Of a DNA stretch of 64,000 bases, positions 9,568 to 61,045 are shown piece by piece. The position numbers and the translations under genes are program-made. Each line of letters begins with the position of its first letter. Within the stretch, counting starts at the first letter, position 1. Source of the stretch: Deltaproteobacteria bacterium (GTDB taxonomy: Bacteria > Myxococcota > Kuafuiibacteriia > Kuafuiibacteriales > Kuafuiibacteriaceae); NCBI GenBank assembly GCA_016703535.1, contig JADJBV010000001.1:385014-449013 (forward strand), given 5' to 3'. Below the pieces are notes generated by a model. That model had not been told where the DNA came from. It searched no databases and worked only from the letters and a program-made list of their open reading frames with translations.

Positions 9568-9932
9568 ACGACAAGCTGGTCACCGTCGAGGACTTCTTTT
9601 TGTTGCTCGGGAGCTTGCTCGAGTCGCGGCGCGCGGCCTTCCGTCGCCGCCTGACCTTGGCCTTTGCGGTGGTCGACGGTGGGCCGTGGTTCGTCGACAC
9701 CGGCGCCCCGCGGATCATCGTCCAGGAGTGGCGCCGAGACGCCCAGGTGTCGGTGTTGTGCAACCGTCGGACCCTGTCCGATCTCGTCGGCGGCCACTTC
9801 GATCCCAACGCCCCCGCCGCCGAGCACCTGTTCGTCTGGGGCGGCGACAAAGAGACCTTCTCCACCCTGGCCCAGGTGCTGGGTGGAGCCATGACCGCCT
9901 TCGGCGCCCACCTGTCGGCGCTGAAGAGATGA
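9564..9932 (+). CDS. SCP2 sterol-carrier-like domain protein of 122 aa.
   Basis: It starts at a GTG overlapping the upstream stop. The motif LSDLVGGHFDPNAPAAEHLFVWGGDKETFSTLAQV resembles the SCP2 consensus G..dp..a...G.lkv.Gd......l. Confidence 0.6.
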   Translation: MNDKLVTVEDFFLLLGSLLESRRAAFRRRLTLAFAVVDGGPWFVDTGAPRIIVQEWRRDAQVSVLCNRRTLSDLVGGHFDPNAPAAEHLFVWGGDKETFSTLAQVLGGAMTAFGAHLSALKR

Positions 9933-9942
9933 GGAGCAGCAA

Positions 9943-10818: not shown

Positions 10819-10821
10819 GCC

Positions 10822-13263: not shown

Positions 13264-13266
13264 CCG

Positions 13267-18549: not shown

Positions 18550-18623
18550 GGTGGGGTAGCTCAGGTGGTTAGAGCGAGGGTCTCATAAGCCCTAGGTCGG
18601 GGGTTCAAGTCCCCCCCCCACCA
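18550..18623 (+). tRNA. tRNA-Met with anticodon CAT (elongator type; an Ile2/lysidine tRNA cannot be excluded).
   Basis: The cloverleaf was folded by hand. The acceptor stem is GGTGGGG/CCCCACC, the D-stem GCTC/GAGC, the anticodon stem AGGGT/GCCCT with loop CTCATAA, and the T-arm GGGGG-TTCAAGT-CCCCC. The discriminator is A, no CCA is encoded, and the length is 74 nt. Confidence 0.9.
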
Positions 18624-19564: not shown

Positions 19565-19567
19565 GGC

Positions 19568-19596
19568 TTGACAAGGCAGGCGGTCGCCCGTATTTC
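19568..19596 (+). promoter_or_regulatory. Candidate promoter for tRNA-Leu, with -35 TTGACA and -10 TATTTC.
   Basis: TTGACA is at 19568-19573, followed by a 17-nt spacer and TATTTC at 19591-19596. The mature tRNA 5' end lies 18 nt downstream. Confidence 0.45.
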
Positions 19597-19613
19597 GATG
19601 CGCCTCGTCCCCT

Positions 19614-19699
19614 GCGAAAGTGGCGGAATTGGTAGACGCGCAGGATTCAGGTTCCTGTGCCCGTTTTAGGGTGTGAGGGTTCGAGTCCCTCCTTTCGCA
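19614..19699 (+). tRNA. tRNA-Leu with anticodon CAG, a type II tRNA with a long variable arm.
   Basis: The acceptor stem is GCGAAAG/CTTTCGC. The anticodon stem is CAGGA/TCCTG with loop TTCAGGT. There is a 16-nt variable arm. The T-arm is GAGGG-TTCGAGT-CCCTC. The length is 86 nt. Confidence 0.9.
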
Positions 19700-19743
19700 T
19701 CGCGCTTCGCGCGAGTGCTCAATGAGGGCCTCGGGCGAGCGCT

Positions 19744-19980: not shown

Positions 19981-20007
19981 TGGGTTGGGTCGGTCTAGTA
20001 GGGAGGC

Positions 20008-20673
20008 ATGATCACCCTTTATACGGCCCCCACTCCCAATGGCTGGAAGGCCTCCATCACCCTCGAGGAGCTGGGCCTGCCTTACCAAGTGCGGGCTTTG
20101 GATCTTGGGAAGATGGAGCAAAAGGAGCCGTGGTTCCTGGAGCTCAATCCCAACGGGCGCATCCCGGCGATCGTCGATCACGACAACGACGACTTTGCGG
20201 TGTTCGAGTCGGGGGCGTTGATGATCTACCTGGCCGACAAGGTCGGGCGGCTGTTGCCGAGCGATACCAAGGCTCGGTCTCGGGTGATTCAGTGGCTGAT
20301 GTTCCAGATGGGCGGGGTGGGGCCGATGATGGGGCAGGCGAACGTGTTTTATCGTTATGCGCCTGAGAAGATCCCGTACGCGATCGAGCGGTACCAGAAG
20401 GAGAGCCGGCGGTTGTTCGAGGTCTTGGACCGGCAGCTGGCGAAGGCGGAGTTTTTGGCGGGCGAATATTCGATCGCCGACATCGCCAATTGGTCTTGGG
20501 TGCAAGGTTATGGCTGGTCGGGGTTGAGCATCGACGGGCTGCCGAACTTGGCGCGGTGGCTCGAGGTGATTGGGGACCGGCCGGCGGTGCAGCGGGGCAA
20601 GGCGGTGCCCGTGAAGGCGGAGGCGGTGGCCGATGCGTCTCGGGTGGAGACGGCCCGGAAGTTGTTGCCATGA
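20008..20673 (+). CDS. yfcG: Nu-class glutathione S-transferase / GSH-dependent disulfide-bond oxidoreductase, similar to YfcG/YghU.
   Basis: [14 protein letters not shown]...[12 protein letters not shown]...[11 protein letters not shown]...IPYAIERYQ...[12 protein letters not shown] aligns nearly end-to-end with E. coli YfcG, aligned from memory. Confidence 0.85.
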
Positions 20674-30886: not shown

Positions 30887-30919
30887 CGACCCGGCCTCCC
30901 GTCCCGCCCAAAGTTGGGC

Positions 30920-42208: not shown

Positions 42209-42745
42209 ATGGGCGCGTTTGTCGAGGGTCGGGAATCGGTGGCCAGGGTGGCGGGTTGGCCGGCGGTGCTGATCCCCGTGATGTTGACGTTTTTGGCCTC
42301 ACCTGAGGCCCCGCCCCCTCGGTTCGACGCGGAGGTCTCTCACTTGCTGGGCCGCGTGATGCCCGAGTGGGAGCTGGAACGTTGGCTCGACGGACAAGCG
42401 CGCAGCTTGGCTTCGCTCCGCGGTCAGGTGGTCTTCATCCGCTGGTTTGCGATGCCGACCTGCCCGTTTTGCACCCGCAGCGCCGAAACATTGATCAACA
42501 TTGATGATGCGTTCAAGGATCGGGGCCTACGGGTCATTGGGATCTACCACCACAAGGAGGATCGACCGCCGCTGCCGGACGACCCGGAGGTGGCGACCAA
42601 GGCCTTCGGCTTTCGCTTTCCCCGAGCGCGCCACATCCACCTGGGAGGTGCCTTGGCGGAGGGTCCAGCCTTGGACGCACTCTGCGACGCCATCGAGCAG
42701 CTCTTGGCCGAAGGTGACGAGGTTCAGGCCTCACCCTCGGGCTGA
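42209..42745 (+). CDS. Thioredoxin-fold (TlpA/redoxin-like) protein with a CPFC active site.
   Basis: The active-site context is VVFIRWFAMPTCPFC, and an N-terminal hydrophobic segment is present. Confidence 0.65.
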   Translation: MGAFVEGRESVARVAGWPAVLIPVMLTFLASPEAPPPRFDAEVSHLLGRVMPEWELERWLDGQARSLASLRGQVVFIRWFAMPTCPFCTRSAETLINIDDAFKDRGLRVIGIYHHKEDRPPLPDDPEVATKAFGFRFPRARHIHLGGALAEGPALDALCDAIEQLLAEGDEVQASPSG

Positions 42746-44709: not shown

Positions 44710-44937
44710 CGGGATACCTCCAGAGGGGGGAGACTACGTTCGATCCCGATCTCCTGCTAGGACTCCACTGGATCCCTCCTGCGCAGCTTTGCGCCTGTTT
44801 CGGTCCATCGACCCCGAGATCCGACCGTGGGTCGGCGATCGTCCTCCGTTCCTTGGGGGGCCTGGGCTCTGGCTGTGCCGACCGGCCTCACCGACCGGTC
44901 TTGCTGGCCGCGTACCGCCCGTGTAGCAGGGAGACGC

Positions 44938-47900
44938 ATGGGAGAGCGGCCGCTGCGGGAGGGCCCCGACGAGGGGTCGACCGCCGAGCTCGAGGCCACC
45001 TTGGTGCCTCACACCCCTTCGGGGGCGCCCCCAAACCCCGGGCCGGATCTGGGCGAGTTCCCGGTGGTCGACCGGAGCCACTATCGCCTGGGCGCGGAGT
45101 TCGCTCGGGGAGGCTTGGGCCGAATCCTGGAGGCCTACGACCTGCGGCTCCAGCGCCACGTGGCGATCAAGGAGCTCTTGGCCAAAGATCCCCGGGCCGA
45201 GGCGCGGTTTCTCCGGGAAGCGTACATCACCGCCAGGCTGCAGCACCCGAACATCGTGGCCATCCACGAGGCCGGGCGTTGGCCCGAGGGCGATCGCTTC
45301 TACGCGATGAAGTTGGTGCGGGGTCGGACCTTGGCCGATCAGCTGGATCTGACCCGCAACGACAATGAACGGCTGGCCTTGGTCCCGGCGATCGTCGACG
45401 TCGCCGACGCGGTGGCGTACGCCCACAGCCAGAACATCCTGCATCGGGATCTCAAGCCCTCGAACGTGATGGTCGGCCCCTTCGGCGAAACCGTGGTGAT
45501 CGATTGGGGCCTGGCCAAGGCCCTGGACGACGGCAAAGAGGAAGGGGTCACGCCGCCCGAACGGACCCCCAGCAACGCCTTCGAGACCTCCGACGGGATG
45601 GTGGTGGGCACGCCGGCTTATATGCCGCCGGAGCAGGCCATGGCCCACCGCATCGACGAACGGGCCGATGTCTACGCCTTGGGCGCGATGTTGTACCACG
45701 TGTTGTCGGGCCATCGGCCTTATCACGAGGTGAAGCCGAAGGACGTGTTGCAGGCGGTGGTCAATCGCCCGCCGGTGCCGTTGTCCGAGTTGGCGCCGCG
45801 GATGCCCCGGGACCTGGTGGCGATCGTCGACAAGGCGATGGCCCGGGATTCGTCCCAACGATATCGGACCGCACGCCAGATGGTGGAAGAGCTCCGGCGC
45901 TTCAGCACCGGTCAGTTGGTGCGGGCCCACGACTATTCGTCTTGGGAGATCCTGACGCGCTTCGCCCGACGGCAAAAAGCGGCGGTGGCCACGGCGACCT
46001 CGGCTTTGGTGGTGTTGTTGGGGTTGGCGACCTTCAGCTACCTGCAGATCGCAGAGGAGAAGGCCGAGGCCCAAAAGAACGCCGTCGAAGCCGAGCTGCG
46101 GGTGGAGCAGTTTTTGCTCGAAAAAGCCCGGTCTTTGCTCGATCGGGACCCGACCTTGGCCTTGGCCTATCTCAAGGATCTGAAGCGACCGATGCCCGGC
46201 GCGGCGACGGTGGGCGCCGAGGCCGAAGACCGCGGGGTCGCGCGGCACGTGCTCCGGGGCCACTCGGCGGGCATCAACGATCTGGCGGTGTCGGCCGACG
46301 GGCGCCACTTGGCCTCGGCCAGCACTGACAAGACGGTGCACCTTTGGGACGTCGGCAGTGGCCAGGGGCGGGCCTTGTTGTGCCATCAAGATCGGGTGGC
46401 CACCGTCGCCTTTTCTCCCGACGGCGCCAGGCTCGCGAGTGGCGGCTACGATCATCGGATCTGCGTCTACGACGTCGAGACCGGACAAGGCCGACGTCTG
46501 GAGGGGCCGACCGAACCCGTGCAGCGGGTGGTGTGGTCGCCCGATGGGGAACGACTGGCGGCGGTCTCAGGGGATCGGACCGTCCGCCTTTATGGCGCGG
46601 ACGGCGCCTTGCTCGAGACCTTGGTGGTCGAGTCGGTGAACCGGGAGGTCTTCGTCCAGTTTTCTCAGGACGGTCGGAGGTTGTTGACCGGCGGGCACGG
46701 CGCCTTCGTGCGGATCCTGGATCTGGCCACCCACGAAAGCCGGGCCTACGACATCAGCTGCAGCGAAGGCGAAGTGGGCTGTAAAGAACCCCGGGTCACC
46801 TGGGCCGCCTTGTCCCCTGACGCTCGGACGGTGGCGGTGGCCGGTTCGGACGGCACCGTCTCGATCTTCGAGGTGCTCTCCGGCAAGCGACAGCGGCTGC
46901 GGGGCCACGAAGATCTGGTCCGTCACCTGGCCTTTTCGGCGGACGGTCGGCGGCTGGTTTCGGCCAGCCTCGATCGGAGCGTGCGGCTTTGGAACCTCGA
47001 CACCGGGGAAGGACGGGCGCTCCTCGGGCACACCGAACGGGTGACCAGCGCCCACTTTTCCCCGGATGGGTCCCGGGTGGTTTCGGCGAGTTGGGATCGG
47101 ACGGTGCGGATCTGGGACCTGGAGACCGGCGAGGTGAAGGTCCTCCTCGGGCACGAAGACGAGGTTTCGGTGTTGGCGGCCGCCGCCGACGAGTCCTTCT
47201 TGGCTTCGGCTTCGGCGGACGGGGCGGTGCGGCTTTGGCGCTTGGATCCGCCCCGTTCTCGGGCGCTCCGAGGCCACACCATCGGCGTCCACGGCGTCGA
47301 CTTTTCGCCCAAAGGGGATCGGGTGGCTTCGGGTGGCCACGACGATCTGGTGCGGATCTGGGATCCGGCTGGGGTCGAGCCGACTCGGATCTTGAGCGGC
47401 CACACCGATCACGTGTTTCGGGTTCGTTTTTCTCCGGACGGCCGGTGGTTGGCCAGCTCCGCCGACGATCAAACCGTCCGCCTCTGGTCGGTGACGGGTG
47501 AAGATCGCCTCTCTTTGATCGGGCACACCGCCGACGTGGAAGAGTTGGCCTTCTCCAGCGACGGGGGCCTCCTGGCCTCGGCGGGGGAAGACGCGGTGGT
47601 GTGGTTGTGGTCGATGCCCAACGGGATCGGGCGACCGCTGCGGGGCCACCAGAACCACGTCACGGATCTGGCCTTTGATCCCAAGCGACCGCGCCTGTTG
47701 TCGTCGAGCCGGGACGGCACGGTTCGGATCTGGGATCTGCGGGCCCAGACCTCAACCGTGGTGCGAGGCCACCTTCGAGAGGTTTGGAGTGTGGCGATCT
47801 CCTCCGACGGTGAAGAGTTGGCGTCGGTCGGCGCTGACGACACCTTGCGGCTCTTCGACGCCAAGACCTTGCGTCCTCGCCGAGTGCAGAAGGGCCTGCT

Positions 47901-48306
47901 GGGCGCTCGTTTGGTCCGTTATTCGCCGGACGGCCGTTATCTGGGGGTGGCCACCTCGGGCGAAGACGTCTGGCTCTGCCAACGGGCTCATGAACTCTGC
48001 GATCGCTTGCCGGGGCAGCAGTCGGTGGTCTGGGACTTGACCTTCACCCCCAACTCCCAGGCGATGATCACCGGCGCCGGCGACGGCACGGTGCGGATCT
48101 GGGACGTGGAGACCCAAGAGAGCCGGGTCCTGCGCGGACATTCGGCGGCGGTCTACGACGTCGCGGTGTCGCCCGATGGGCGAACGGTGGCCTCGGCCAG
48201 CGCCGATACCTTGGTGCGGCTCTGGAACCTGCAGCTGCCGCCCAAACCCCGGGACCTGGGGCGGTGGTTGGAGGCCCGGACCTCGGCCACCTCAGGCCGG
48301 CCGTAA
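44938..48306 (+). CDS. Ser/Thr protein kinase with a transmembrane segment and a C-terminal WD40 beta-propeller of about 14 repeats.
   Basis: Kinase motifs HRDLKPSNVMV, DWGLAK and GTPAYMPPEQ are present. WD repeats end in VHLWDV, VRLWNL and VRIWDL. The first ATG is at 44938; the track ORF begins upstream at 44827. Confidence 0.85.
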   Translation: MGERPLREGPDEGSTAELEATLVPHTPSGAPPNPGPDLGEFPVVDRSHYRLGAEFARGGLGRILEAYDLRLQRHVAIKELLAKDPRAEARFLREAYITARLQHPNIVAIHEAGRWPEGDRFYAMKLVRGRTLADQLDLTRNDNERLALVPAIVDVADAVAYAHSQNILHRDLKPSNVMVGPFGETVVIDWGLAKALDDGKEEGVTPPERTPSNAFETSDGMVVGTPAYMPPEQAMAHRIDERADVYALGAMLYHVLSGHRPYHEVKPKDVLQAVVNRPPVPLSELAPRMPRDLVAIVDKAMARDSSQRYRTARQMVEELRRFSTGQLVRAHDYSSWEILTRFARRQKAAVATATSALVVLLGLATFSYLQIAEEKAEAQKNAVEAELRVEQFLLEKARSLLDRDPTLALAYLKDLKRPMPGAATVGAEAEDRGVARHVLRGHSAGINDLAVSADGRHLASASTDKTVHLWDVGSGQGRALLCHQDRVATVAFSPDGARLASGGYDHRICVYDVETGQGRRLEGPTEPVQRVVWSPDGERLAAVSGDRTVRLYGADGALLETLVVESVNREVFVQFSQDGRRLLTGGHGAFVRILDLATHESRAYDISCSEGEVGCKEPRVTWAALSPDARTVAVAGSDGTVSIFEVLSGKRQRLRGHEDLVRHLAFSADGRRLVSASLDRSVRLWNLDTGEGRALLGHTERVTSAHFSPDGSRVVSASWDRTVRIWDLETGEVKVLLGHEDEVSVLAAAADESFLASASADGAVRLWRLDPPRSRALRGHTIGVHGVDFSPKGDRVASGGHDDLVRIWDPAGVEPTRILSGHTDHVFRVRFSPDGRWLASSADDQTVRLWSVTGEDRLSLIGHTADVEELAFSSDGGLLASAGEDAVVWLWSMPNGIGRPLRGHQNHVTDLAFDPKRPRLLSSSRDGTVRIWDLRAQTSTVVRGHLREVWSVAISSDGEELASVGADDTLRLFDAKTLRPRRVQKGLLGARLVRYSPDGRYLGVATSGEDVWLCQRAHELCDRLPGQQSVVWDLTFTPNSQAMITGAGDGTVRIWDVETQESRVLRGHSAAVYDVAVSPDGRTVASASADTLVRLWNLQLPPKPRDLGRWLEARTSATSGRP

Positions 48307-48831
48307 CAACTTGAGCGCCGCCTCGACCTCACTCCAGCTTGGATGATCACCGGCGGTTTCGCTGGCGTGGCGCCACAACAACTCCCCGCCCCGATCGACC
48401 AACAAGGTGCCGCCCAGCTGGAGCGCGTCCCCCTTGACCCCGGACTGCATATGCCCGCGGCCCAAGGCCCGGGCGGCGTGCAAGATACCTTGCGGGGCCA
48501 AGAGCCCGCCCAGGTCCCGGCGAAAGTGGGCTCGCTCGTACACCTTCAGGGTGGGGTCGGTGTAGATCGGCTCCTCGACCGACTGATCATTCTTGAACCA
48601 GGCGGCTTGGGCGACCGAACCATTGCCAACCAGCACCAGCCGGGCGCCGTAGCTCTTGATCTCGTGGTGATGGCGGCGCAACTGCGCCACTTGCTCTCGG
48701 CAGAACAGTCAGCCGTAGTGGCGCAGGAAGGTCAGGAGTGCTGGGCCGTCCCTCCACACTTCGGCCAGGGTGTGGAGCCCGCCGTCCGGGTCGTAGACGG
48801 GGCTTTCCGCGAGTTCAGCCGAGATCTGCAT
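48292..48831 (-). CDS. Candidate selenoprotein of the PRXL2/SelU-like (AhpC-TSA_2) peroxiredoxin-like family, with an in-frame TGA (Sec) at 48709-48711 in the redox motif G-U-L-F-C. If the TGA is not read through, this is a pseudogene.
   Basis: Translating from ATG 48831 on the minus strand gives MQISAELAESPVYDPDGGLHTLAEVWRDGPALLTFLRHYG-TGA-LFCREQVAQLRRHHHEIK... in one frame, contiguous with the 132-aa track ORF. The TGA sits where the first Cys of the conserved CxxC (FxRxxGCxxCRE) is expected. Confidence 0.5.
48673..48690 (-). other. Hairpin in the mRNA, GUGGCGC-AGUU-GCGCCGC, 18 nt downstream of the in-frame UGA. It is a candidate bacterial SECIS element.
   Basis: The 7-bp stem includes one G-U pair and the 4-nt loop contains GU. 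Its position is within the usual 16-37 nt window for bacterial SECIS apical loops. Confidence 0.35.
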
Positions 48832-48873: not shown

Positions 48874-51066
48874 GTGGGCCTGGCTGTCCTGGAATCGACC
48901 GTGCCCCGGGCGATCTGCTACGGTCCGCCCGTGACTTTAGTCACGGAAGCTGAGGCCCAGGCCCTCTTTGGTGGGGAACGGGAAGCCCTCTTTGCCCTGG
49001 TTCGCCGCATCGCCGAACCCCGGGTCGGGTCGCTGCGCCTTCGAGGGGTGGTCGAGTCCCAGCTGGGTCGCCCGCTGCCCAAAGAGCTCGGCCACTTCGT
49101 GGAGGCCTTCGAGGCCCACGAACTCGAGGTCTGTGATCCCGCCGGCGCCGAACTTTTGGCCCCCGGCCCCAGCCCGGATCTGCTCGGCCTCTTGGATCCC
49201 AACGCCCCCGCTTACCTGCCCGAGTTGGTCGGCTTCTTCACCGCCAGCACCCCGGTGGTGCTCGACGAAGAGATGTGTTTTTTGGCGGCCCTGGCCGGCA
49301 CCCGTTCGGGCTACGCCAAGGTCTATTATTTTCACCCCCAAGACTGGGGCCTGTGGCCCACCGATGCGTCGTTGACCGCTCGGCTTTTCCGCACGCTCCA
49401 GGAAGAAGATCGACCCGAGTTGGCCCACCTGCGCTTCACCGGGGAAGAGGAGGCCCGCCGGGTCCAAGCTCTCAAGTTGTTCGAGGCCCTGGCCCGCCCC
49501 GAGCCACTTATGCCGGAGCTGGATCCGGTGGTGTTGTTCCCGCGGGTGAGCTGGTTGATCCACGCCTTGGGGGGCGTGGGCCTCAGCTTCGACAAGGAGT
49601 TGCCCAAAGCGCCGCCCCACGATCGCTGGATGAGCGAACGCCTGGAGTTGGTGGCCCGGCCTCACCTCCTCGCCTATTGGTTGTGGGCCCACTGGTTCTT
49701 CGATGATCCCGAAGGGCTCGAGGAAGCGACCGCGGCCGCCGCCCGTTCGCCCCACCCGGTGGTGGCCGGGACGGTGCAAGCGATCCACGCGCTCCTTCAC
49801 GGAACAAAGCTGAAGTTGGGGGACAAAGATCGCTCCCAACTTTTGGCGCTGAAGGACGAGCTCTTGGAGCGGGCGCCGGCGGAGCTGCTCAGCGGCCCGG
49901 CCCGCCATCGACGCAACCGCCGCCGGGCCGAAGAATCCCAGGCCAACCGAGCGGAGATCGAGGCCCTCGAGTTGTTGGAGGCCCAGGCCCCCTCCGAACC
50001 TCTGGTCGCCGAGGCCTTGTTCCTCTTGCAGCACTTGGCCCGGGGCAGCGCCGTTCCTCCGGAGAAGGCCGAACTTCACGGGGGCCTCGACTCCAGCGCC
50101 GCCCAAGCCCGCTTGGCCGAGCTGATGGATCCGCGTTTTCGTCCGGTGATCGAGGCCCGGCTGACCCGAGCGGCGGCGGTCGGCGACACCCACCGGGACG
50201 CGTCGTTTGGGTTGATCTTGGCCCTCGCGGCGTTGGAGCCGGACTTCGGCGCCTTCGTCGCCTTCTTCGAGCGGCTCGGCACCAGCAACTTCGGCCCCCG
50301 TCGGATGCAGGAGCTCTATCGGGCCTTCGGCAGCTACCCGGATCCCCGGGCCACCAAGATCCTGGCCGCCGGCGCCCGGGCTTGGTTGACCGAGGTCGAC
50401 GACTGGATCCGCATGGCGCCCAGTGAACCGTTGCTCCAGCTGCTGCACCGCGATTGTTTGGAGACCCACGAGCTGATCGCCCGGCTGTTGGAGCGGGCCA
50501 ACTATTCGGCGGCCAACTTCGACATCTGCGTGCGGGCGGCCCACGCGGCCCTGGAGCTGAAGTCGCAGCGGGCCATCCCCGGTCTGGAGCGGGCGGTCAA
50601 ACAAGGGTTGGGCCGGGTCGACGACGGCGGCCGGGCCACGGTGATCCGGGCCTACGCCCAAGTGGCGGGTGAGGTCAGCGTGCCGGTGTTGTTGGCCCGA
50701 CTGGCGGATCGCCGAAATCGCTGGGAGTCGTCGGACGAGGACGATCAACCCGAACATCAGTACGAGTTGTCGTGTTTGTTGTCGGGGCTCTTGCCGGTGT
50801 TGCCCGAGGATCAAGAGCTCTTGGCGGTGGCGCGGACGCTCCTGGCCTTGTTCAAGATCCGGATGTTGCCGACCCGGACCCCGCGGCGGGAGGTCTTCGA
50901 GGCCACCAAGGCCATCGTGGTTGGCGCCCACCAAGGGGACGTCCGGGCCCTGGCGTCGGCGATCACCCCTTTTTTGCGCTTGGAAACGAGGCTCACCCCG
51001 GTCACCAAGGCCGCGGCCCGAGCCCTGGAAACTGCGGCTCAAATGGCCCTCGGTGATCTCTCATGA
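48874..51066 (+). CDS. Hypothetical 730-aa protein that is largely alpha-helical.
   Basis: The ORF is long with consistent codon usage. The GTG start is uncertain. Confidence 0.5.
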   Translation: MGLAVLESTVPRAICYGPPVTLVTEAEAQALFGGEREALFALVRRIAEPRVGSLRLRGVVESQLGRPLPKELGHFVEAFEAHELEVCDPAGAELLAPGPSPDLLGLLDPNAPAYLPELVGFFTASTPVVLDEEMCFLAALAGTRSGYAKVYYFHPQDWGLWPTDASLTARLFRTLQEEDRPELAHLRFTGEEEARRVQALKLFEALARPEPLMPELDPVVLFPRVSWLIHALGGVGLSFDKELPKAPPHDRWMSERLELVARPHLLAYWLWAHWFFDDPEGLEEATAAAARSPHPVVAGTVQAIHALLHGTKLKLGDKDRSQLLALKDELLERAPAELLSGPARHRRNRRRAEESQANRAEIEALELLEAQAPSEPLVAEALFLLQHLARGSAVPPEKAELHGGLDSSAAQARLAELMDPRFRPVIEARLTRAAAVGDTHRDASFGLILALAALEPDFGAFVAFFERLGTSNFGPRRMQELYRAFGSYPDPRATKILAAGARAWLTEVDDWIRMAPSEPLLQLLHRDCLETHELIARLLERANYSAANFDICVRAAHAALELKSQRAIPGLERAVKQGLGRVDDGGRATVIRAYAQVAGEVSVPVLLARLADRRNRWESSDEDDQPEHQYELSCLLSGLLPVLPEDQELLAVARTLLALFKIRMLPTRTPRREVFEATKAIVVGAHQGDVRALASAITPFLRLETRLTPVTKAAARALETAAQMALGDLS

Positions 51067-51659
51067 AGCTCCGTGTTAACGTCGGCCCCATGCGGTTGTT
51101 TGTTGTGGTGCTCCTGGCCTTCTTCGGCAACGGCACCGCCACCTTGGCCGGCGCCGCCGAGGCCGAGGTCCTCAAGGTTGGCGAAGTGGCGCCTCCTTTT
51201 GTGCTCAAGACCATGAACGCCAAGTTGGTGGGTCAGAACCAGTTTGTGCTCAAAGAACACGTGGGCCCCGAGGCCAAGGCGATCAAGAAGGCGGTGGTCC
51301 TCAGCTTCGCCGCTTCCTATTGTGAACCCTGTCGTCGAGAGCTCAAGGAGCTGAAGGCGATGAAGGCCGAGTTGACCGAGGCTGGCGCCGAGCTGGCGGT
51401 GGTGGTGATCGACACCGAAGCCGAAGGCATCGCCGCCATGCAGAAGTTGACGGTGGACGAATTGGCGCTCCCGTTTCCCGTGCTGGCCGATCGCTTCGGG
51501 GTCTTGGCCCGGCGATATCACGCCAACGCTCTACCGATGACCGTGGTGATCGGCAGCGACGGCAACGTCCGCTACGTGGCCTCGGGCTTCGCGGAGGGCG
51601 CCTTGGACAAGCTCCGGGCCGAGCTCGGTATCAAGGTCGAGGCCAAGCCTAAAAAGTGA
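51063..51659 (+). CDS. Secreted TlpA-like thiol-disulfide oxidoreductase of the redoxin family with a CEPC motif.
   Basis: Its ATG overlaps the upstream stop as ATGA. A signal peptide is present. The active-site context is VVLSFAASYCEPCRRE. Confidence 0.7.
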   Translation: MKLRVNVGPMRLFVVVLLAFFGNGTATLAGAAEAEVLKVGEVAPPFVLKTMNAKLVGQNQFVLKEHVGPEAKAIKKAVVLSFAASYCEPCRRELKELKAMKAELTEAGAELAVVVIDTEAEGIAAMQKLTVDELALPFPVLADRFGVLARRYHANALPMTVVIGSDGNVRYVASGFAEGALDKLRAELGIKVEAKPKK

Positions 51660-53694: not shown

Positions 53695-53721
53695 GGCCCT
53701 ATAGGGTCAATCGCGGCTTCA

Positions 53722-54942
53722 TTGCCGCTTCGGTTTGGCTATAGTTCGCCCGTGGAGCGCTTCGGGCCGTTCGAGATCCTGCGGCTCCTTGGCCGAGGTG
53801 GCATGGCCGAAGCGTTCGTGGCGCGCCGGGCCGACGGCGCGGGCTCCGGGCAGCTGGTGGTCAAGCGAATCCGGCCCGATCACGCCCAACGCGAAGAGTA
53901 CCTGCGTCGATTTGTCCTCGAGGCCCAGGTCGCCTCTCGGCTCGCCCACCCCAACTTGGTGCGCTTCGTCGAGTTTGGTCAGGTGGGGCAGGGCCAATAT
54001 CTGGCCATGGAGATGGTGAAGGGCCGTAGCCTGCACCGGCTCCTCGATCACCTCTTCCTGCGCGAAGAGGCGCCCCCCGTCGAGGTCGCGATCTCGATCG
54101 GCGCGGGCATCCTCTCGGGCCTGGCCGAGATGCACGCCGTGACCGATGAAAACGGGCAGTCGCGGCCGATGCTCCACCGAGACGTCACGCCGGCCAACGT
54201 GATCCTATCGACCGAAGGCCGACCGGTGATCATCGACTTTGGGATCACCAAAGATCTCTTTGGGCCATCGTTGACCTTGCCGGGTAAGGTGATCGGCACG
54301 GCCCGCTACATGGCGCCCGAACATCGGCGCGCCGAATATTTGGATCCTCGGGCCGACGTCTTTTCGGCCAGCGTGATCTTGGCCGAGCTGCTCCTGGCGC
54401 GACACCCGTGGCCGCCCCTCTCTTCGATCAAGGAGCTTTTGCGGGTCACCTTCGATCCCCCCGAGCTCACCGACGCCGAACGTCGGCGGCTTTCGCCCGA
54501 GTTGATCGAGGTGTTGTTCCGGGGCCTGGACTGCGATCGAGAACGGCGCTTCCCCGACGCCCGGGCCATGCTCGACGCTTTGCGGGCGTTGCCCGGCTAC
54601 CCGACCGACGGCGAACAAAAGACGGCGAGTTGGGCTCAAAGTTTGGGCGTGTCCTTGGACGAAGAGCTCGTCGAGCCGGTGGTCGACCTTTTGCCCGCGG
54701 GGCTGCCCCCGGCGGCGCCCCCCGCGCCAACCCCGGAGAATTCGGGCGAACCCCGGGGCGCTCAGGTCCTGGCCTTGCCTCCGCTGCCGCCTCGCCGGGA
54801 CTCGTCCTTGGGTTCGGTTGGAACCCTGGATTTGGTGGCCGAAGTGACGGTCCCCAGTAGGCGGATGTGGGCTTGGTCACTCCTCGGCCTGGGCGGGGTG
54901 GTCTTGGTGGGGGCGGTGGTCGCGTTGCTCCTCTCCCACTAG
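53722..54942 (+). CDS. Ser/Thr protein kinase with a C-terminal transmembrane anchor.
   Basis: Kinase motifs HRDVTPANVIL, DFGITKDL and GTARYMAPE are present. Confidence 0.85.
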   Translation: MPLRFGYSSPVERFGPFEILRLLGRGGMAEAFVARRADGAGSGQLVVKRIRPDHAQREEYLRRFVLEAQVASRLAHPNLVRFVEFGQVGQGQYLAMEMVKGRSLHRLLDHLFLREEAPPVEVAISIGAGILSGLAEMHAVTDENGQSRPMLHRDVTPANVILSTEGRPVIIDFGITKDLFGPSLTLPGKVIGTARYMAPEHRRAEYLDPRADVFSASVILAELLLARHPWPPLSSIKELLRVTFDPPELTDAERRRLSPELIEVLFRGLDCDRERRFPDARAMLDALRALPGYPTDGEQKTASWAQSLGVSLDEELVEPVVDLLPAGLPPAAPPAPTPENSGEPRGAQVLALPPLPPRRDSSLGSVGTLDLVAEVTVPSRRMWAWSLLGLGGVVLVGAVVALLLSH

Positions 54943-54964
54943 GCGGCCTGCTACACTGCCTGGG

Positions 54965-57118
54965 TTGGTGGCCGGCGCTCCCCGCCAGTCTTTTTCGGTC
55001 GATATCGCGGGCCTTTTGGCGGCCCTCACCGAACAATTTCCCGAGCCGCTCCTCTGCGTCCGGGAGTTGGTCCAAAACGCGGCCGACGCCGGCGCCCAAC
55101 GGATCGAGACCGACGTCGCCTACGATGAGGGCCGTTCCCTCTTGCGGCTTTCGGTGCGCGACGATGGCCGGGGCATGAACGAGGTCGAGGTCGACGGTTA
55201 CCTGACCATCGGCTTCTCCGACAAAGACCCGGGCCGGGATCGGGGACGCTTCGGCGTCGGCAAACTTTCGCCCTACGCCCTCGGCATCTCCCGGATGGTC
55301 GTCGAGACCTGCGACGGCCACACCACCCACCGGATCACCTTCAACCGGGACGGCTCGGGCACCATCGCTCGGCTCGAGCCCCGGCCCCGAGGGACCGTGG
55401 TGCGGGTCTACAAAAGTTGTGGCCGGGAGGAGGCCGAACACCTGGCCGAACGCACCTTCCAGTTGGTGCGGGACACCTGCGGCAGCTTGCCGATCCCGCT
55501 CTTCGTCAACGGGACTCAGGTCAACCGGGACGTGGCCCTCTCCACCATCTACGCCTTCCCCTTCAATTCACCGGCAGGGAAGGGCGTGCTCGGCTTGGCG
55601 GCCGAGGCGGTCCACGTGTTGATGGGCGGCGGCATCGTGCTCGAGAGTGGTTCGGCCATCTTGGGCAACGAGGTCTCGTACATCCTCGACTCGCCCCGCT
55701 TGGCCCCGACCTTGTCGCGCAACGCGGTCCGCCGGGACCAGGCCTTCGACGAGCTGCTCCGCACCGCCCGGGCTCAGATGCCCTTTTTTACGGCCCACGT
55801 GGCCCGGCAGCTCCGGGTGCGGACCCAACGCCTCCGGTCCGAAGGTGTGGCGGTTGAACGAGGCCTGGACACCAACGATCGAGCGGCCCTCGAGTGGCTG
55901 CGTTCTTTGTTGGTTGAACCCGAGACCCCGCCCGACTCGGTGGTGCGGGACGCGCCGGTCATCGAAACCGCCGACGGGAGTTTGGTCTCGGCCAACGAGC
56001 TGATCGACGTGATCCGCCGCGAGGGCCGGGTGCCGATCTCGCGGATCCCCAGGACCCGGGACGAGATCAGCGCCTACGCCGATCGAGGCGTGCCGGTGTT
56101 GTTGCTCTACCGAGACCTCGAGGACTTCCTGGAGCGTCAGGCGATCGAAACCGTGGAGGTCGACGGCCTGGACGAAGGGGCGGAGATCGCCGAGGGCCAG
56201 TGGGGCAAGGGCGAGGTGGCCTTGGCCGACCGGCCGGTGATCGATCCGCCGGCCCGCAGCTGGAAGCCGGCGATCGTCGCTTCGATGGCCTCGGCGACGG
56301 TGGCCTTGGTCTCCTGGCACCTGATCATCCCCAGCGAAGAGGAGCTGGATCGGCGGTTGATGGCCGATCGACTCCCCGCGATCACCGCGCCAGCGCCGGC
56401 GCCCGGGCCTCAGGACGGGCCCGCCTTCGGCGAGGAGGTGGTGGTGCAAACGCCGCCGATCGCGGCCAACCTGGTGAGCGCCCCCCGGGAGGAGAAAAAC
56501 CGGATCCTCTTGACCCTGGCGGCGGTGGTGGCGGCCCTCTCTTTGGCCACCGGCTTTGGCATGCTCTACCTGACCTTCACCGCTCGCCACACCCAGGTGG
56601 GGTCGTGGTTGCGGACCGAAGCGGGGGCGCCGATGACCAGCGGCGAAACGCGTCGCCGCAAGTTCAACGTCTTGTCCCGGGCCTTGTTGCACCCGATCGA
56701 CTTTTTTGTCGCCCGGGGTTGGTCGCTTCGGGCCTCGGGGCCCCGGCCACTCCACGCGCCGGCGGCGATCAAAGGTTATCGGGAGTTGGCCCCGGAGCAA
56801 CCCATCCGCTCCGGGGTGCGGCTGGATCTCGATCGGGTGCGGATCGGCTTCGTCGACTTGGTCTCCCAAAGCGGCGATCCCCACGACGGGCGCATCTTGC
56901 TGAAGCGGCGGGATCGGGTGTTGCTCAACCGCAACCACCCCACGGTGCGTGATCTGATCGCGGTCGCCGAAAGTGATCAGCGGCGAGCCCGGCTCTTGTT
57001 GGACGCCCTCTTGGCCACGGACGCCGATCTGGCCCGGGGCACCGATCCACGGCAGGTTGAGTGGGATCTGTTGGGGCGCGCCGAGTTGGGCGCGAGGAAA
57101 AAGCTCAGTGTCCAATGA
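54965..57118 (+). CDS. GHKL (Hsp90/HtpG-like) ATPase-domain protein of 717 aa with C-terminal transmembrane segments.
   Basis: Motif I is ELVQNAADAG, motif II is VRDDGRGM and motif III is GRFGVGKLS. Confidence 0.7.
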   Translation: MVAGAPRQSFSVDIAGLLAALTEQFPEPLLCVRELVQNAADAGAQRIETDVAYDEGRSLLRLSVRDDGRGMNEVEVDGYLTIGFSDKDPGRDRGRFGVGKLSPYALGISRMVVETCDGHTTHRITFNRDGSGTIARLEPRPRGTVVRVYKSCGREEAEHLAERTFQLVRDTCGSLPIPLFVNGTQVNRDVALSTIYAFPFNSPAGKGVLGLAAEAVHVLMGGGIVLESGSAILGNEVSYILDSPRLAPTLSRNAVRRDQAFDELLRTARAQMPFFTAHVARQLRVRTQRLRSEGVAVERGLDTNDRAALEWLRSLLVEPETPPDSVVRDAPVIETADGSLVSANELIDVIRREGRVPISRIPRTRDEISAYADRGVPVLLLYRDLEDFLERQAIETVEVDGLDEGAEIAEGQWGKGEVALADRPVIDPPARSWKPAIVASMASATVALVSWHLIIPSEEELDRRLMADRLPAITAPAPAPGPQDGPAFGEEVVVQTPPIAANLVSAPREEKNRILLTLAAVVAALSLATGFGMLYLTFTARHTQVGSWLRTEAGAPMTSGETRRRKFNVLSRALLHPIDFFVARGWSLRASGPRPLHAPAAIKGYRELAPEQPIRSGVRLDLDRVRIGFVDLVSQSGDPHDGRILLKRRDRVLLNRNHPTVRDLIAVAESDQRRARLLLDALLATDADLARGTDPRQVEWDLLGRAELGARKKLSVQ

Positions 57119-58973
57119 AGACGTCAGTGAGGTCTTCGAGACCCTGAGCCTCTCCAACACCGAACCCCTCGGGGCCCCCGGGTCCACCCGCCGGCCCCTT
57201 TACCGCGCCGATCCCGACCGGGTGTTGCGGGTCCTGGCCGCCAACCAGTTCGAAGATCCGTACCTGGCCTTTCGCGAGCTCTACGCCAACGCCTTGGACG
57301 CGGTGCGCAGCCGCAAAGACGGGGTCATCCACGTGAAGGTCGCCGCCGATCGGGTGGTGATCGAAGACAACGGCACCGGCCTCGACGACGCGGGCCTGGA
57401 GGCCTTGACCACCTTGGGCGCCTCGACCCGGCGTGGCCACGACGCGATCGGCCGTTTTGGCATCGGCTTCGCGTCGATCTTCGATCCGGCCTTGGGGGTG
57501 GGGAAGGTCGATTTTCAGGCCCATCGACAAGGCCAAGACGAAGGGGTGGTGATCCGCTTCGTGCCCGACGTCGGCGGGGGCGTCTCCATCCAGGTCGACG
57601 CTCACCCCAGGCCACGTCTCGGTGGCAGCCGCGTCGAGATCGCCTTCGATCCGAGTCGAGCCAGAGAAGATCGGGTGGCCAAGGTGGTGGAGGTCTTCGA
57701 GACCCACGCCGCGTATTCGGGGGTCGAGACCGAACTCAACGGGCGCCTCCTCGGCAAAGATCTGGCCGACTTCATCAAGGCCGAACTCAAGGACGGCGAC
57801 TGGTCCAACGTGGAGCGGGCCTTGTCGGCGGCCTCGGCGGTCAAGGGGCCGGTCGGCGTCGCGGCCATCGATCCTTCTCGCAGCGAGTCCAAGTTTCGGG
57901 CCTATCAACGGGGGCTCTACGTCTGCGAGGTCCCCTTGCCCCGGGTGCAAGGGAAGCCGTGGCCCCGGGGGGTGTTCGGCGCGGTCCACGGCGAAGGCCT
58001 GGATCTGGTGGCCAGCCGCAACGCCTTCGTCGAAAACGATCACTTCCACCGTTTTCAAGAGGAGCTGCGGCGCCTGGCCTACGAGTCGGCCTACCGAGTG
58101 GTGCGCCACTGGGAGCAGACCAAAGACACCTACGCCCGGATCGTGTTGCTCGACGCCCTCCGTCGGGGCCTGCGCACCACCACCCCCGAGAGCCTGTTGG
58201 CCGAGTCGGACGATCTCTTCTCTAGCGCCGTCGTGCGGTCGCCACTTTTTTATGCCTGGGGCACCAAAAAGCTCTACTCCTTCGAAGAGCTGGTGGCGCT
58301 GAAGCGCAGCGACACCTTCCGGGCCTTGTCCTATCGGCCGGCCTGGCGCGATCGGGACGACGGGCCGATCATGCGGGCCGACGACTCCATCGAGCGGGAC
58401 ATCTTCCGCAAGTTGTCCGGCATGCGAGAGATGCCGGCGGCGGCCCGGGCCGAAGACGTGGCCATCCCCTCGTGGCTCTCTCGGCTGCGCGATCGCTTGA
58501 TGTCCGGGCCGAGGGCCGAATATTCCTTGTTCCAGCGGCCCCTCGACGAGGCCAAGGTCGCGCCGGGCACCAAACGCTTGATCGAAAAGCTGGAGGAGTT
58601 TTTGGCCAGCCCCGAGGTCTCCGAAGCCTTGGCTCGGCTGCTCCCCGGGCCACTCCCGCGGCTGGGCTTCGGCATCTCCCGGAACGCCTTCGGGCCGGTG
58701 GCGGCCTACCGCTTGGGCGAGATCCGCTTCAACGTCGCCCATCGGGCGGTCCGCCGTTTGTCGAAGACCACCGATGCCCAGCTCGGGGCTTGGGCGCTTT
58801 TGCCGGTGTTGGCCCACGAGTTGGCCCACATGTGCCACGAGCTCCATGACCTGGACTTCTATCGGACCAGCCGGGCCATCCTGAGGGCCTTGGTGGTGGC
58901 CGCGGCCAAGATCGACGCCCGGGCCGCGGCCTCAACCATGATGATGCCCGAGCTTGGCTCCGAACCTTCGTAG
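57108..58973 (+). CDS. Second GHKL (Hsp90-like) ATPase-domain protein, a paralog of the upstream gene.
   Basis: The motifs RELYANALDA, IEDNGTGL and GRFGIGFAS are present. A GTG start at 57108 lies 8 nt after a GAGGAA Shine-Dalgarno and overlaps the upstream gene end by 11 nt. The track start at 56973 is a probable over-extension. Confidence 0.65.
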   Translation: MSNEDVSEVFETLSLSNTEPLGAPGSTRRPLYRADPDRVLRVLAANQFEDPYLAFRELYANALDAVRSRKDGVIHVKVAADRVVIEDNGTGLDDAGLEALTTLGASTRRGHDAIGRFGIGFASIFDPALGVGKVDFQAHRQGQDEGVVIRFVPDVGGGVSIQVDAHPRPRLGGSRVEIAFDPSRAREDRVAKVVEVFETHAAYSGVETELNGRLLGKDLADFIKAELKDGDWSNVERALSAASAVKGPVGVAAIDPSRSESKFRAYQRGLYVCEVPLPRVQGKPWPRGVFGAVHGEGLDLVASRNAFVENDHFHRFQEELRRLAYESAYRVVRHWEQTKDTYARIVLLDALRRGLRTTTPESLLAESDDLFSSAVVRSPLFYAWGTKKLYSFEELVALKRSDTFRALSYRPAWRDRDDGPIMRADDSIERDIFRKLSGMREMPAAARAEDVAIPSWLSRLRDRLMSGPRAEYSLFQRPLDEAKVAPGTKRLIEKLEEFLASPEVSEALARLLPGPLPRLGFGISRNAFGPVAAYRLGEIRFNVAHRAVRRLSKTTDAQLGAWALLPVLAHELAHMCHELHDLDFYRTSRAILRALVVAAAKIDARAAASTMMMPELGSEPS

Positions 58974-59128: not shown

Positions 59129-59371
59129 ATGAAGATCTTGATCGCGAGTTTGGCCCTGGCGGCCACCGCACCCCTGACGGTGAACACCCCGGCGCTGCAA
59201 GCCGAACCCGCTACGGCCGTGGCCAGCACGGTCGGCACCAACCCTCACCCGTTTGGGCCGATGGCCGTCGTGTTCGTCCGTTTGGCCTTCGCCGCGGCCG
59301 CCGCTTCGTCCACCAAAAGCAACCTCCCCAGCTACTTTGAGGGACCGGCGCCGACCCAAGCCTTCGATTGA
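59129..59371 (+). CDS. Small secreted protein of 80 aa.
   Basis: A strong GAAGGAG Shine-Dalgarno lies 7 nt upstream of the ATG. A signal peptide MKILIASLALAATAPLTVNTPALQA is present. Confidence 0.6.
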   Translation: MKILIASLALAATAPLTVNTPALQAEPATAVASTVGTNPHPFGPMAVVFVRLAFAAAAASSTKSNLPSYFEGPAPTQAFD

Positions 59372-59428
59372 AAGAACGAGGGCGCCGCCGCGCTGCGGTT
59401 CGGCGGCGCCCCTCGAACCAGGAGAGCC

Positions 59429-60118
59429 ATGGAACGAACAATCAAGGCCCTGGCCACCCTGGTGGTCGCGGTCCACCTGCTGTTGACCGTCGCCTACAAC
59501 GCCCCCGAAAGCCCGGCGCGGCAGGCCCTGAGCCCGCTGCTCGAGTCCACGGTTGGTCGCTGGTTCCCCCAGAACTGGCGGATGTTCGCGCCCGATCCGG
59601 CCCGCTCCAACGTCTCGGTGATCGTCGCGTGTTTGGACGCGGCGACCTTGGTGGATCGGCGAGGGTCGGTCGAGACCGCGTCGACCGCCTGGGCCGGACC
59701 TTGGGTCGACATCTCCGCGCCTTTGGCCCGGGCGCACCAAAACTCCCGGCTCTCGGCCTACGACCGGTTCCTGAGGGCCCAAGACGCCGCCGCCCGCAAC
59801 GTGTTGGCCGATCCCCACGGCATCGAGGCCTGGGTGAAGTCGTGCAAAAAGGGCGACACTTCGGCTTGCACCTTCGCCGATGAGACCCGGCGCGCTTGGA
59901 AGCGCTCCTCCACGCGATACCTGGTGCGGGTTGCGTCCTCCTATTGTCGCGCGGTCGCGCCGGCCAGCGCCGGGGTGGGGTTGCGGGTCCGGGATCGACC
60001 GGCGGTCCCCTGGTCCAAGCGGCACACCGAGACCGAATCGCCCGCGTCCGAGATGCCCCTCGGCTTCTTCCCAATCGCCGAGGATGTGATGCCCTCGCCG
60101 ATGTTCGAATCGAGCTGA
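59429..60118 (+). CDS. DUF5819-like membrane-anchored protein.
   Basis: A GGAGAG Shine-Dalgarno is present. It has an N-terminal transmembrane helix followed by the WFPQNWRMFAPDP motif. Confidence 0.55.
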   Translation: MERTIKALATLVVAVHLLLTVAYNAPESPARQALSPLLESTVGRWFPQNWRMFAPDPARSNVSVIVACLDAATLVDRRGSVETASTAWAGPWVDISAPLARAHQNSRLSAYDRFLRAQDAAARNVLADPHGIEAWVKSCKKGDTSACTFADETRRAWKRSSTRYLVRVASSYCRAVAPASAGVGLRVRDRPAVPWSKRHTETESPASEMPLGFFPIAEDVMPSPMFESS

Positions 60119-60121
60119 CCG

Positions 60122-61045
60122 ATGTGGAAACAACACCCCCTGGTTTTTTGGCTCAACGGCCCGGCCCACCACCGGACCGGGGTCCGCTTCTTTCAAGCCA
60201 TGATCGGCGTAGCCCTCTTGTTCCGCTTCGCCACCGAGGTCCCCTTCGCCGGCTGGTTGTGGGGGGCCCGGGGCCTCCCGGGCGGCGGCGCTTTCCCGGC
60301 CCTAGGCCCGTGGTCCCAGGCCGTGGAGGGGCTCTACGCCGACGATCGCCTGATCGTGGGGCTGCTGCTGCTCCAGGCGGTGGGTGCCTTGCTCCTGATC
60401 ACCGGCCAGGCCACCCGCTTCGCGGCGTCCTTGTGCCTCTTCGCGGTGACCATGCTCGAGTGGCGCACCATGGAGATCAACGACGGCGGCGACAACCTGG
60501 CCCGGATCTGCCTCTGCTACTTCTTGTTCTTGGCCCCACCGAACAGGGTGGTCGCTCCGGGTTCATTGCGCGCCTACCTGCACAACCTCGGCGTCCTGCT
60601 CCTGATCGCCCAGGTGATGATCCTGTACTTCGTCGCCGGCCTCGCCAAGGCGATGGGGGAGGTCTGGATGAACGGCACGGCCCTCTACCTGATCAGCCAG
60701 GTCGAGGAGTTTTCGCTCCCGGGGCTCCGGGCCCTCTTCAAGAACCCCTTCCTCACCGTCGGCGCCAGCTACCTCACCTTGGGGCTCCAGCTCTTCTTCC
60801 CGATCTCCTTCTTCACGCGCTTCAAGCTGTTCTTCTTGTTGTTGGGGATGGCCTTTCACCTGGGGATCGCCGGTTTCATGGGCCTGGTCAGCTTCAGCCT
60901 GATCATGGCCGGCGCGGATCTCCTCTTGATCAGCGACGAGGAGTACGGCGGGTTCCGTCGATGGCTCCCCGCGTGGCCCTGGCGTTGGCCCTTCGCGATC
61001 AAGGACACGCCGGCCCTACAGCGGGGGGCAGGCCAGGACCTCTGA
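60122..61045 (+). CDS. HTTM-domain (vitamin K-dependent gamma-carboxylase-like) polytopic membrane protein.
   Basis: ILYFVAGLAKAMGEVWMNGTALYLI corresponds to VKGC [24 protein letters not shown], and N-terminal RFFQAMIGVALLFRF to FRFLFGLLMVLD. Its ATG lies 3 nt after the upstream stop. Confidence 0.6.
   Translation: MWKQHPLVFWLNGPAHHRTGVRFFQAMIGVALLFRFATEVPFAGWLWGARGLPGGGAFPALGPWSQAVEGLYADDRLIVGLLLLQAVGALLLITGQATRFAASLCLFAVTMLEWRTMEINDGGDNLARICLCYFLFLAPPNRVVAPGSLRAYLHNLGVLLLIAQVMILYFVAGLAKAMGEVWMNGTALYLISQVEEFSLPGLRALFKNPFLTVGASYLTLGLQLFFPISFFTRFKLFFLLLGMAFHLGIAGFMGLVSFSLIMAGADLLLISDEEYGGFRRWLPAWPWRWPFAIKDTPALQRGAGQDL

Follow-up and report, generated by a model that had tools for sequence, protein, structure and literature searches.

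An in-frame UGA and a covarying downstream hairpin point to selenocysteine in an AhpC-TSA_2/SelL-related redox protein of a myxococcotal bacterium

RESULTS

A single minus-strand frame interrupted by one UGA

We analysed a stretch of 64,000 nucleotides (nt) from a Deltaproteobacteria bacterium (assembly GCA_016703535.1, contig JADJBV010000001.1, positions 385,014 to 449,013), hereafter the window. On its minus strand lies a gene (48292–48831) that carries an in-frame TGA where related redox proteins have a cysteine (Cys), which makes it a candidate for decoding of UGA as selenocysteine (Sec). The complete gene comprises 179 codons including the proposed Sec41, from the ATG at 48831–48829 to the stop codon TGA at 48294–48292. 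Its 40 N-terminal codons (48712–48831), predicted to provide the beta strands before the active site, are omitted by gene callers or called as a separate open reading frame (ORF) of 39–46 aa. The UGA (48709–48711) follows, and the comparison of TGA and Cys codons across loci argues for reading it as Sec41, the first residue of a U-x-x-C redox motif. A spacer of 18 nt (48691–48708), constant in length in all homologues with TGA at this codon (the Sec forms), encodes L-F-C-R-E-Q, the remainder of the redox motif. Within it, the TGC codon at 48700–48702 specifies Cys44, the presumed resolving residue of UxxC, which is invariant in our alignment A1; the active site would thus read Sec41-Leu-Phe-Cys44. 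Directly after the spacer, and inside the coding sequence, is a hairpin (48673–48690) that we regard as the putative selenocysteine insertion sequence (SECIS), as it recurs at the same offset and with covarying stems in all Sec forms.

An earlier reading of this DNA, made from the letters only (the sequence-only reading), had described one minus-strand frame running from ATG 48831 to 48292 with the TGA embedded in FLRHYG-TGA-LFCREQVAQL. Our retranslation of the minus strand agrees: the frame contains exactly one internal TGA, at codon 41, in the context LLTFLRHYG-TGA-LFCREQVAQLRRH. A mechanical ORF list gives only a C-terminal ORF of 132 aa starting at GTG 48690. This GTG, the start chosen by gene callers, is the first codon of the 5′ arm of the hairpin stem.

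We compared the 33 codons upstream of the UGA with those of the closely related locus L001 and observed 15 synonymous and 5 non-synonymous codon differences. By codon position, the differences were distributed 6/3/17, and the other two frames contain stops. This pattern indicates that the 40 codons upstream of the UGA are evolving as coding sequence, in the same frame and under purifying selection. TGA also serves as the stop of 22 of the 31 long ORFs in the window with high G+C content at third codon positions (GC3). As TGA is an ordinary stop elsewhere in the window, the recoding would be site-specific, without a genome-wide reassignment of the codon.

TGA and cysteine codons share one alignment column

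Homologues were collected by a database search and then by a one-genome-per-species scan together with a JGI metagenome scan, which supplied 160 further loci; the set from named genomes comprised 80 loci. The database search returned two classes of relatives, full-length proteins of 184–197 aa with the motif FLRHFG-C-xx-C versus truncated proteins of 129–138 aa that span only the C-terminal ∼70% (66–74%) of the query. Among named relatives, MBK6683208.1 (129 aa, ‘AhpC/TSA family protein [Deltaproteobacteria bacterium]’), encoded in a metagenome-assembled genome (MAG), stands closest to the truncated product. When the DNA of the truncated homologues was translated in frame upstream of the annotated start, all seven of seven were found to have TGA at the motif codon and a conserved N-terminus ahead of it. 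Residue by residue, this upstream segment can be aligned with the N-terminal part of the full-length Cys forms; in L001, L006, L007 and L008, it had been called as a spurious ORF of 39–46 aa ending at the TGA.

In total, TGA occupies the Sec41 codon in ∼25 homologous loci from independent assemblies, and TGC or TGT is found there in ∼75–90 others. Among the named genomes, the TGA forms come from Acidobacteriota/Vicinamibacteria (L010, L012 and L013), Chloroflexota/Anaerolineae (L048, L052 and L083), Dormibacterota (L044 and L049) and a Proteobacteria MAG (L019), with L031 as a further member. Anaerolineaceae bacterium BD1 (BGOS01) is one of the genomes with a TGA form. Metagenome contigs add nine TGA forms, and the remaining scanned loci, from named genomes as well as metagenomes, have TGC or TGT in the Sec column. 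The TGA forms reach down to ∼35–45% protein identity. L001 is 81% identical to the window protein and syntenic with the window; L004, from the Acidobacteriota MAG GCA_046331505.1, is 48% identical and has a different gene neighbourhood. All Sec forms recovered have Cys at the resolving position.

The arrangement by which Kryukov, Zhang and Gladyshev recognise selenoprotein genes, an in-frame TGA that aligns with Cys between flanks conserved on both sides, is therefore present here. The sequence-only reading had asked whether orthologues carry Cys or Sec at this position, and had named the loss of the N-terminal 40 codons from orthologues as an observation that would speak for a downstream start. 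Across the loci, TGA and TGC/TGT fall in one column, and the N-terminal codons are kept in frame.

The downstream hairpin covaries and accompanies the TGA

In the window, the hairpin is formed by the 5′ arm GUGGCGC (48690–48684), the loop AGUU (48683–48680) and the 3′ arm GCGCCGC (48679–48673). The stem has seven perfect base pairs (bp), including one G-U pair, and starts 18 nt after the UGA, so that the UGA-to-loop distance is 25 nt. For bacterial SECIS elements, the published range from UGA to apical loop is 16–37 nt (PMC10778597), and the published consensus has a small loop containing a conserved guanosine (PMC1088965). The 25 nt observed here fall within that range, and the small loop contains a G. 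The hairpin of the sequence-only reading, GUGGCGC-AGUU-GCGCCGC at 18 nt 3′ of the UGA with bacterial-SECIS spacing, was hence borne out in sequence, position and spacing.

We observed the same layout in all Sec forms: the stem begins 18 nt after the UGA, and the loop that it encloses is AGUU (AGGU in L091 and L159), with a G at loop position 2. The stems are GC stems of 5–8 bp; in L006, L007 and L010, one U of the 5′ arm is mismatched or bulged. Stem sequences vary among the clades with pairing kept (GUGGCGC/GCGCCGC, GCGGUGC/GCACCGC, GUCGCGC/GCGCGAC, CUGGCCC/GGGCCGG and GCCCGCC/GGUGGGC), and these variants change the encoded peptide, which reads VAQLR, AVQLH, LAQLG or ARQLV. As the stem changes alter the peptide and yet preserve the pairing, it is the RNA structure, and not the protein sequence, that is conserved.

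Pair counting in an alignment of 15 sequences (A2) gave consistent results. In this alignment, 95.2% of the cells were paired and six of the seven pairs had changed on both sides. The covariation score was 0.611 versus 0.172 in shuffled alignments, and none of 500 shuffles reached 0.611; when the register was slid, at most 58% of the cells were paired. The stem is also tied to the TGA. At least five contiguous stem pairs were present in 16 of 16 Sec forms, with the AGUU loop at the fixed offset, versus 2 of 73 Cys forms. When family membership was filtered more strictly, at least five of seven pairs together with an AGNU loop were present in 15 of 15 Sec forms versus 9 of 88 Cys forms (Fisher p = 3e-12). 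The fixed offset, the constant loop, the compensatory stem changes and the association with TGA forms support the view that the hairpin behaves as a predicted SECIS should.

A few Cys forms show a comparable structure. L015:10117, from a Dehalococcoidia MAG, has an AGUU loop and six of seven pairs, and may be a fossil SECIS left after a Sec-to-Cys conversion; L108 and L131 are further possible cases.

Family and predicted fold

With Cys in place of the stop, the window protein matches Pfam PF13911 (AhpC-TSA_2) with 58.2 bits versus a cutoff of 27 (E = 1.3e-15), and its match to PF00578 is weak (34 bits). The AhpC-TSA_2 (PRXL2) family proposed by the sequence-only reading is thus correct; that reading had called the protein SelU-type, whereas the curated NCBI model names the family SelL-related. 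This model, NCBIfam NF040769 ‘SelL-related redox protein’, was passed with 128.4 bits (cutoff 120), with residues 8–172 aligned on positions 4–172 of the 173-position profile. Of the homologues, the Cys form P0005 scored 122 and P0003 scored 120, whereas more distant Cys forms lie below the cutoff, such as P0012 with 97.

The closest solved structure to the family is that of human PRXL2B, the prostamide/prostaglandin F synthase (9us9). It was matched by the family profile with E = 1.6e-21, and its Cys44-x-x-Cys47 aligns with U41/C44 of the window protein. The sequence-only reading had placed the Sec of eukaryotic SelU at exactly this position, a statement on which the PRXL2B alignment bears indirectly. 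A structure was modelled for P0005, the closest full-length Cys form, rather than for the window protein. In this AlphaFold2 (AF2) model, which has a predicted local distance difference test (pLDDT) value of 94.9, the first Cys lies directly before helix 41–52, and Cys43, the equivalent of Cys44, is in the first turn. The model, itself a confident one, places these residues in a thioredoxin-type active-site arrangement. Its top structural neighbours were 9usa/9us9, with template modelling (TM) scores of 0.78/0.87, followed by PrxQ/BCP and ResA. The typical peroxiredoxin motif PxxxTxxC is absent; the motif of the window protein is G-U-x-x-C, which is thioredoxin-like, versus T-x-x-C.

Proposed decoding and chemistry

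The recurrent TGA, the TGA-linked covarying hairpin and the conserved N-terminus support Sec decoding, which the sequence-only reading had favoured over a sequencing error or a pseudogene. As judged by comparative sequence analysis, the gene at 48831–48292 almost certainly encodes a selenoprotein (probability about 0.9), predicted to be a cytoplasmic thioredoxin-fold oxidoreductase of 179 residues that belongs to the AhpC-TSA_2/SelL-related group.

From the anatomy of the gene, a ribosome reaching the UGA at 48711–48709 would have the hairpin 18 nt downstream, bound by SelB carrying Sec-tRNA(Sec). SelB would then bring Sec into the A site, competing with release factor 2, and 138 more codons would be translated. 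The fold and the PRXL2/Prx-like relatives suggest that the selenolate of Sec41, which would cap the first helix at its N-terminal end, would attack an oxidised substrate, by analogy perhaps a peroxide/endoperoxide or a disulfide. Cys44 would resolve the intermediate into a selenenylsulfide, to be re-reduced by a thioredoxin- or glutathione-type system. In this scheme, we infer SelB binding, selenium incorporation, the substrate and the reductant.

Several observations weigh against Sec decoding. A single-sequence fold of 86 nt around the hairpin is no more stable than shuffled sequences (z = −0.89) in this 67% GC sequence; the hairpin on its own is unremarkable in GC-rich sequence, and its significance comes entirely from the comparison between loci. 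No SECIS model of Rfam matched the hairpin at either gathering or permissive thresholds. The conserved peptide AQLR could drive part of the hairpin sequence, and some Cys forms do encode AQLR, even with CAG-UUG (L015, L035, L053 and L074); none of these has the full stem. The NF040769 score of the window protein barely exceeds the cutoff. Finally, ARAGORN detected no tRNA-Sec in the window or in 12 Sec-form loci, Pfam searches of ∼30 window genes gave no SelA, SelB or SelD, and a regular-expression screen of ∼2 Mb of fetched flanks for SelD, SelA and GTPase signatures, a weak test, found none. These searches covered the 64-kb window and ∼2 Mb of flanks, and we consider the missing hits uninformative rather than negative. 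Use of Sec is on record for Chloroflexi, for Acidobacteria and for Deltaproteobacteria, the last with the myxobacterium Anaeromyxobacter among them (PMC1794560, Tables 2-3).

Alternative explanations

The UGA might be read through without selenium, either by near-cognate insertion of Trp or Cys, or by insertion of Cys through the Sec machinery at selenium scarcity, with the hairpin acting as a stimulator. In general, a hairpin downstream of a stop codon can promote read-through, and the failure to find Sec machinery genes in the window or the fetched flanks would fit such a mechanism. However, the codon occupies the catalytic Cys position of the CxxC motif, where Trp would destroy the function, and UGA acts as a normal stop elsewhere in the window. 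Moreover, a TGA/Cys pair together with a hairpin inside the ORF, whose small apical loop contains G and lies at 16–37 nt, is the established hallmark by which bacterial selenoproteins are recognised (PMC1088965, PMC10778597), and the phyla involved are known Sec users (PMC1794560). We therefore regard selenium-free read-through as improbable.

According to a second alternative, translation truly starts at GTG 48690 or at another internal codon, giving a protein of 129–138 aa devoid of the redox motif, and the 40 upstream codons are a separate small ORF or an untranslated leader. Every annotation pipeline has adopted this solution, as in MBK6683208.1, and the upstream ORFs of 39–46 aa have been called. 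The product, however, would be a thioredoxin fold deprived of its first beta strands and of the helix cap with CxxC, and the upstream segment matches full-length Cys forms at their N-termini residue by residue. The called starts also vary by locus (GTG, ATG or, in P0004, the codon right after the TGA), as happens in gene-caller artefacts. An internal start is for these reasons very improbable.

The gene could also be a recent nonsense pseudogene: a TGC-to-TGA change would have disabled a CxxC gene, and decay would not yet have reached the downstream frame. A single substitution would suffice, and gene callers indeed report just the 132-aa C-terminal ORF. But the TGA stands at the same codon in ∼25 loci of different phyla and assemblies, down to ∼35–45% identity; both halves of the gene are under purifying selection in one frame; the hairpin co-occurs with the TGA; and the neighbour-joining tree contradicts a single recent clonal TGA lineage. 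The chance that the gene is such a pseudogene is negligible, and recurrence in ∼25 independent assemblies excludes a recent nonsense mutation as well as a sequencing error. A sequencing or assembly error at a TGC codon, for which nothing more speaks than the single base by which TGA and TGC differ, can hardly be entertained: this TGA is also what independent assemblies from Logan, ENA, JGI and NCBI show for relatives both near and far.

Distribution of Sec and Cys forms

In the neighbour-joining tree, the Sec forms make up two or more coherent clades and some scattered members, with Cys clades in between. One of the Sec clades is that of the window, and another is a Dormibacterota/Chloroflexota clade with the motif U-(T/I)-H-C. 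By its same offset and same loop, the predicted SECIS is clearly homologous throughout the Sec forms. A homologous SECIS across interleaved clades suggests that the Sec state is old and was converted to Cys repeatedly, or that the gene was transferred horizontally.

It is conceivable, and we propose it tentatively, that the TGA forms constitute an uncatalogued bacterial selenoprotein subfamily within PF13911/NF040769. Such a subfamily would have the motif U-x-(F/H)-C-(R/K)-(E/D) and a homologous in-ORF SECIS (a stem with C-AGUU-G) at the same codon offset, would occur in at least four phyla including Dormibacterota, and would be the prokaryotic Sec counterpart of eukaryotic SelU/SelL. If this is true, either the Sec state is ancient and has been converted to Cys repeatedly, or the gene has spread horizontally with a SECIS that SelB proteins of very different kinds accept.

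In two Anaerolineae loci, the Sec-form gene has a Cys-form paralogue directly upstream, at a distance of ∼600 nt (L048:9489 and 10087; L052:997 and 1595). In L031 (10123 and 11736), a Cys paralogue is found 1.6 kb downstream of the Sec form. Such adjacent Sec/Cys paralogues may be pairs of isoenzymes that perhaps serve growth in the presence and in the absence of selenium.

All database copies that we encountered are truncated to 129–138 aa and named ‘AhpC/TSA family protein’ or ‘hypothetical protein’, and the most immediate consequence of our reading is a correction of this annotation. The same misannotation affects at least ∼25 loci in Acidobacteriota, Chloroflexota, Dormibacterota and MAGs of the Deltaproteobacteria/Myxococcota type, and the finding identifies these lineages of soil and wastewater, for the most part uncultured, as probable users of selenium. 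The covariation-supported SECIS alignment could be the starting point of a covariance model for such elements, of which Rfam has poor coverage.

Gene neighbourhood and other features of the window

The selenoprotein gene converges on a WD40 Ser/Thr kinase gene (44827–48306), with an overlap of 15 nt, and diverges from a gene for a 730-aa protein without Pfam match (48874–51066, plus strand). The latter overlaps by 4 nt (ATGA) the gene of a TlpA-like thiol-disulfide reductase (51063–51659, plus strand), and a second AhpC-TSA/Redoxin gene is located at 42209–42745. This arrangement is common to L001 and is not found at the Acidobacteriota locus, so there is no conserved operon. The pair of 730-aa and TlpA-like genes also stands beside the selenoprotein gene in L001, and may be functionally linked to it in this clade only. 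The sequence-only reading had called the neighbourhood redox-rich, citing TlpA-like thioredoxins and a glutathione S-transferase (GST). The AhpC-TSA/TlpA-like genes at 51063–51659 and 42209–42745 agree with this description; the GST (20002–20673), however, is 28 kb away, and the neighbourhood is conserved only in the closest relatives.

A window-wide screen for other in-frame TGA codons followed by a hairpin left TGA 59369 as the sole plausible candidate for a second Sec site. We rejected it, as it is the ordinary stop of a small secreted protein and the hairpin is intergenic, ahead of the DUF5819 start at 59429. The small protein, which has a signal peptide, is encoded at 59129–59371 (plus strand) and is followed by the GC-rich intergenic hairpin at ∼59390–59409; the spacing from TGA 59369 to this hairpin is SECIS-like though the codon is an ordinary stop. 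Next come the DUF5819 gene (ATG 59429–60118, plus strand) and an HTTM-domain gene (60119–61045, plus strand).

At 9925–15975 (plus strand), three long high-GC3 ORFs lie in one frame and are split only by the TGA codons at 10816–10818 and 13261–13263. They encode a 297-aa segment, an AAA+/Kelch protein and a 903-aa protein that gives a weak match of the anthrax-lethal-factor type. We found no convincing hairpin after either of these two TGA codons, and the ORFs are probably just adjacent genes.

Very large ORFs with coding-like GC3 are present at 2–5935 (plus strand, 1977 codons) and 25625–30919 (minus strand, 1764 codons). In the region 18550–19701 (plus strand), a tRNA-Met (18550–18623) and a tRNA-Leu (19613–19701) flank an alpha/beta-hydrolase ORF; the stop-to-stop frame of the hydrolase, from 18596, overlaps the tRNA-Met, and its true start therefore lies further downstream. 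The region 53695–58973 (plus strand) contains a Ser/Thr kinase gene followed by two consecutive genes for HATPase_c_3 proteins (756 and 671 codons stop-to-stop), and is syntenic with L001.

Comparison with known systems

The predicted SECIS shares with the Escherichia coli fdhF-type element its position as a hairpin directly 3′ of the UGA inside the ORF, the small apical loop with G-U and the 16–37 nt spacing (PMC10778597; PMC1088965). It differs from the fdhF-type element in having an AGUU/AGGU tetraloop on a GC stem of 5–8 bp that begins 18 nt after the UGA, as read from the sequences of the loci.

As regards the protein, the PF13911/NF040769 Prx-like2 group, which includes eukaryotic SelL, SelU/PRXL2A and PRXL2B, has in common with the window protein a thioredoxin fold whose helix cap carries a motif of the CxxC type. 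Shchedrina et al. reportedly described, in 2007, eukaryotic SelL as having UxxU, and distant SelL-like proteins with Cys in place of one Sec or of both. The eukaryotic Prx-like2 selenoproteins differ from the window gene in that SelL has UxxU and the SECIS is part of the 3′ untranslated region, its usual place in eukaryotic selenoproteins (PMC3316567), whereas the window gene has UxxC and a predicted SECIS inside the ORF.

Selenoprotein catalogues of 2022 and 2026 list PF13911/cd02970 only as a UxxS selenoprotein, and NF040769 is in neither of them (PMC9312934; PMC13188914). The catalogued UxxS form, with the accessions CAB1081847.1 and MDX2448127.1, has the same Pfam domain, is likewise bacterial and has Sec as the first residue of U-x-x-(C/S); on a comparison by description, it differs in having Ser at the resolving position, where all Sec forms found here have Cys. 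Our literature search for SelL-related and SelL-like proteins gave no relevant match. A PF13911 selenoprotein subfamily with UxxC is thus possibly missing from the catalogues.

Prx-like bacterial selenoproteins with UxxC have been known since 2004–2008 from the Sargasso Sea and Global Ocean Sampling (GOS) analyses (PMC1088965; PMC2398784; PMC4989117). The abundant GOS family ‘Prx-like 1’ (pfam00578) shares with the window gene a Prx-like thioredoxin fold, the UxxC motif, a bacterial SECIS inside the ORF and the same likely chemistry. We considered identity with this family and rejected it: its motif is W-U-P-x-C, BLASTP against the window protein gave E = 32, and its NF040769 scores were 44 and 23 bits (cutoff 120). 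The part of the GOS sequence supplement that was searched contained no motif string of the present family. No type of bacterial selenoprotein is commoner than that in which Sec replaces the attacking Cys of a thioredoxin-fold UxxC motif, and the present case adds little conceptually; the window gene is a mis-annotated new example of the well-known Prx-like UxxC selenoproteins.

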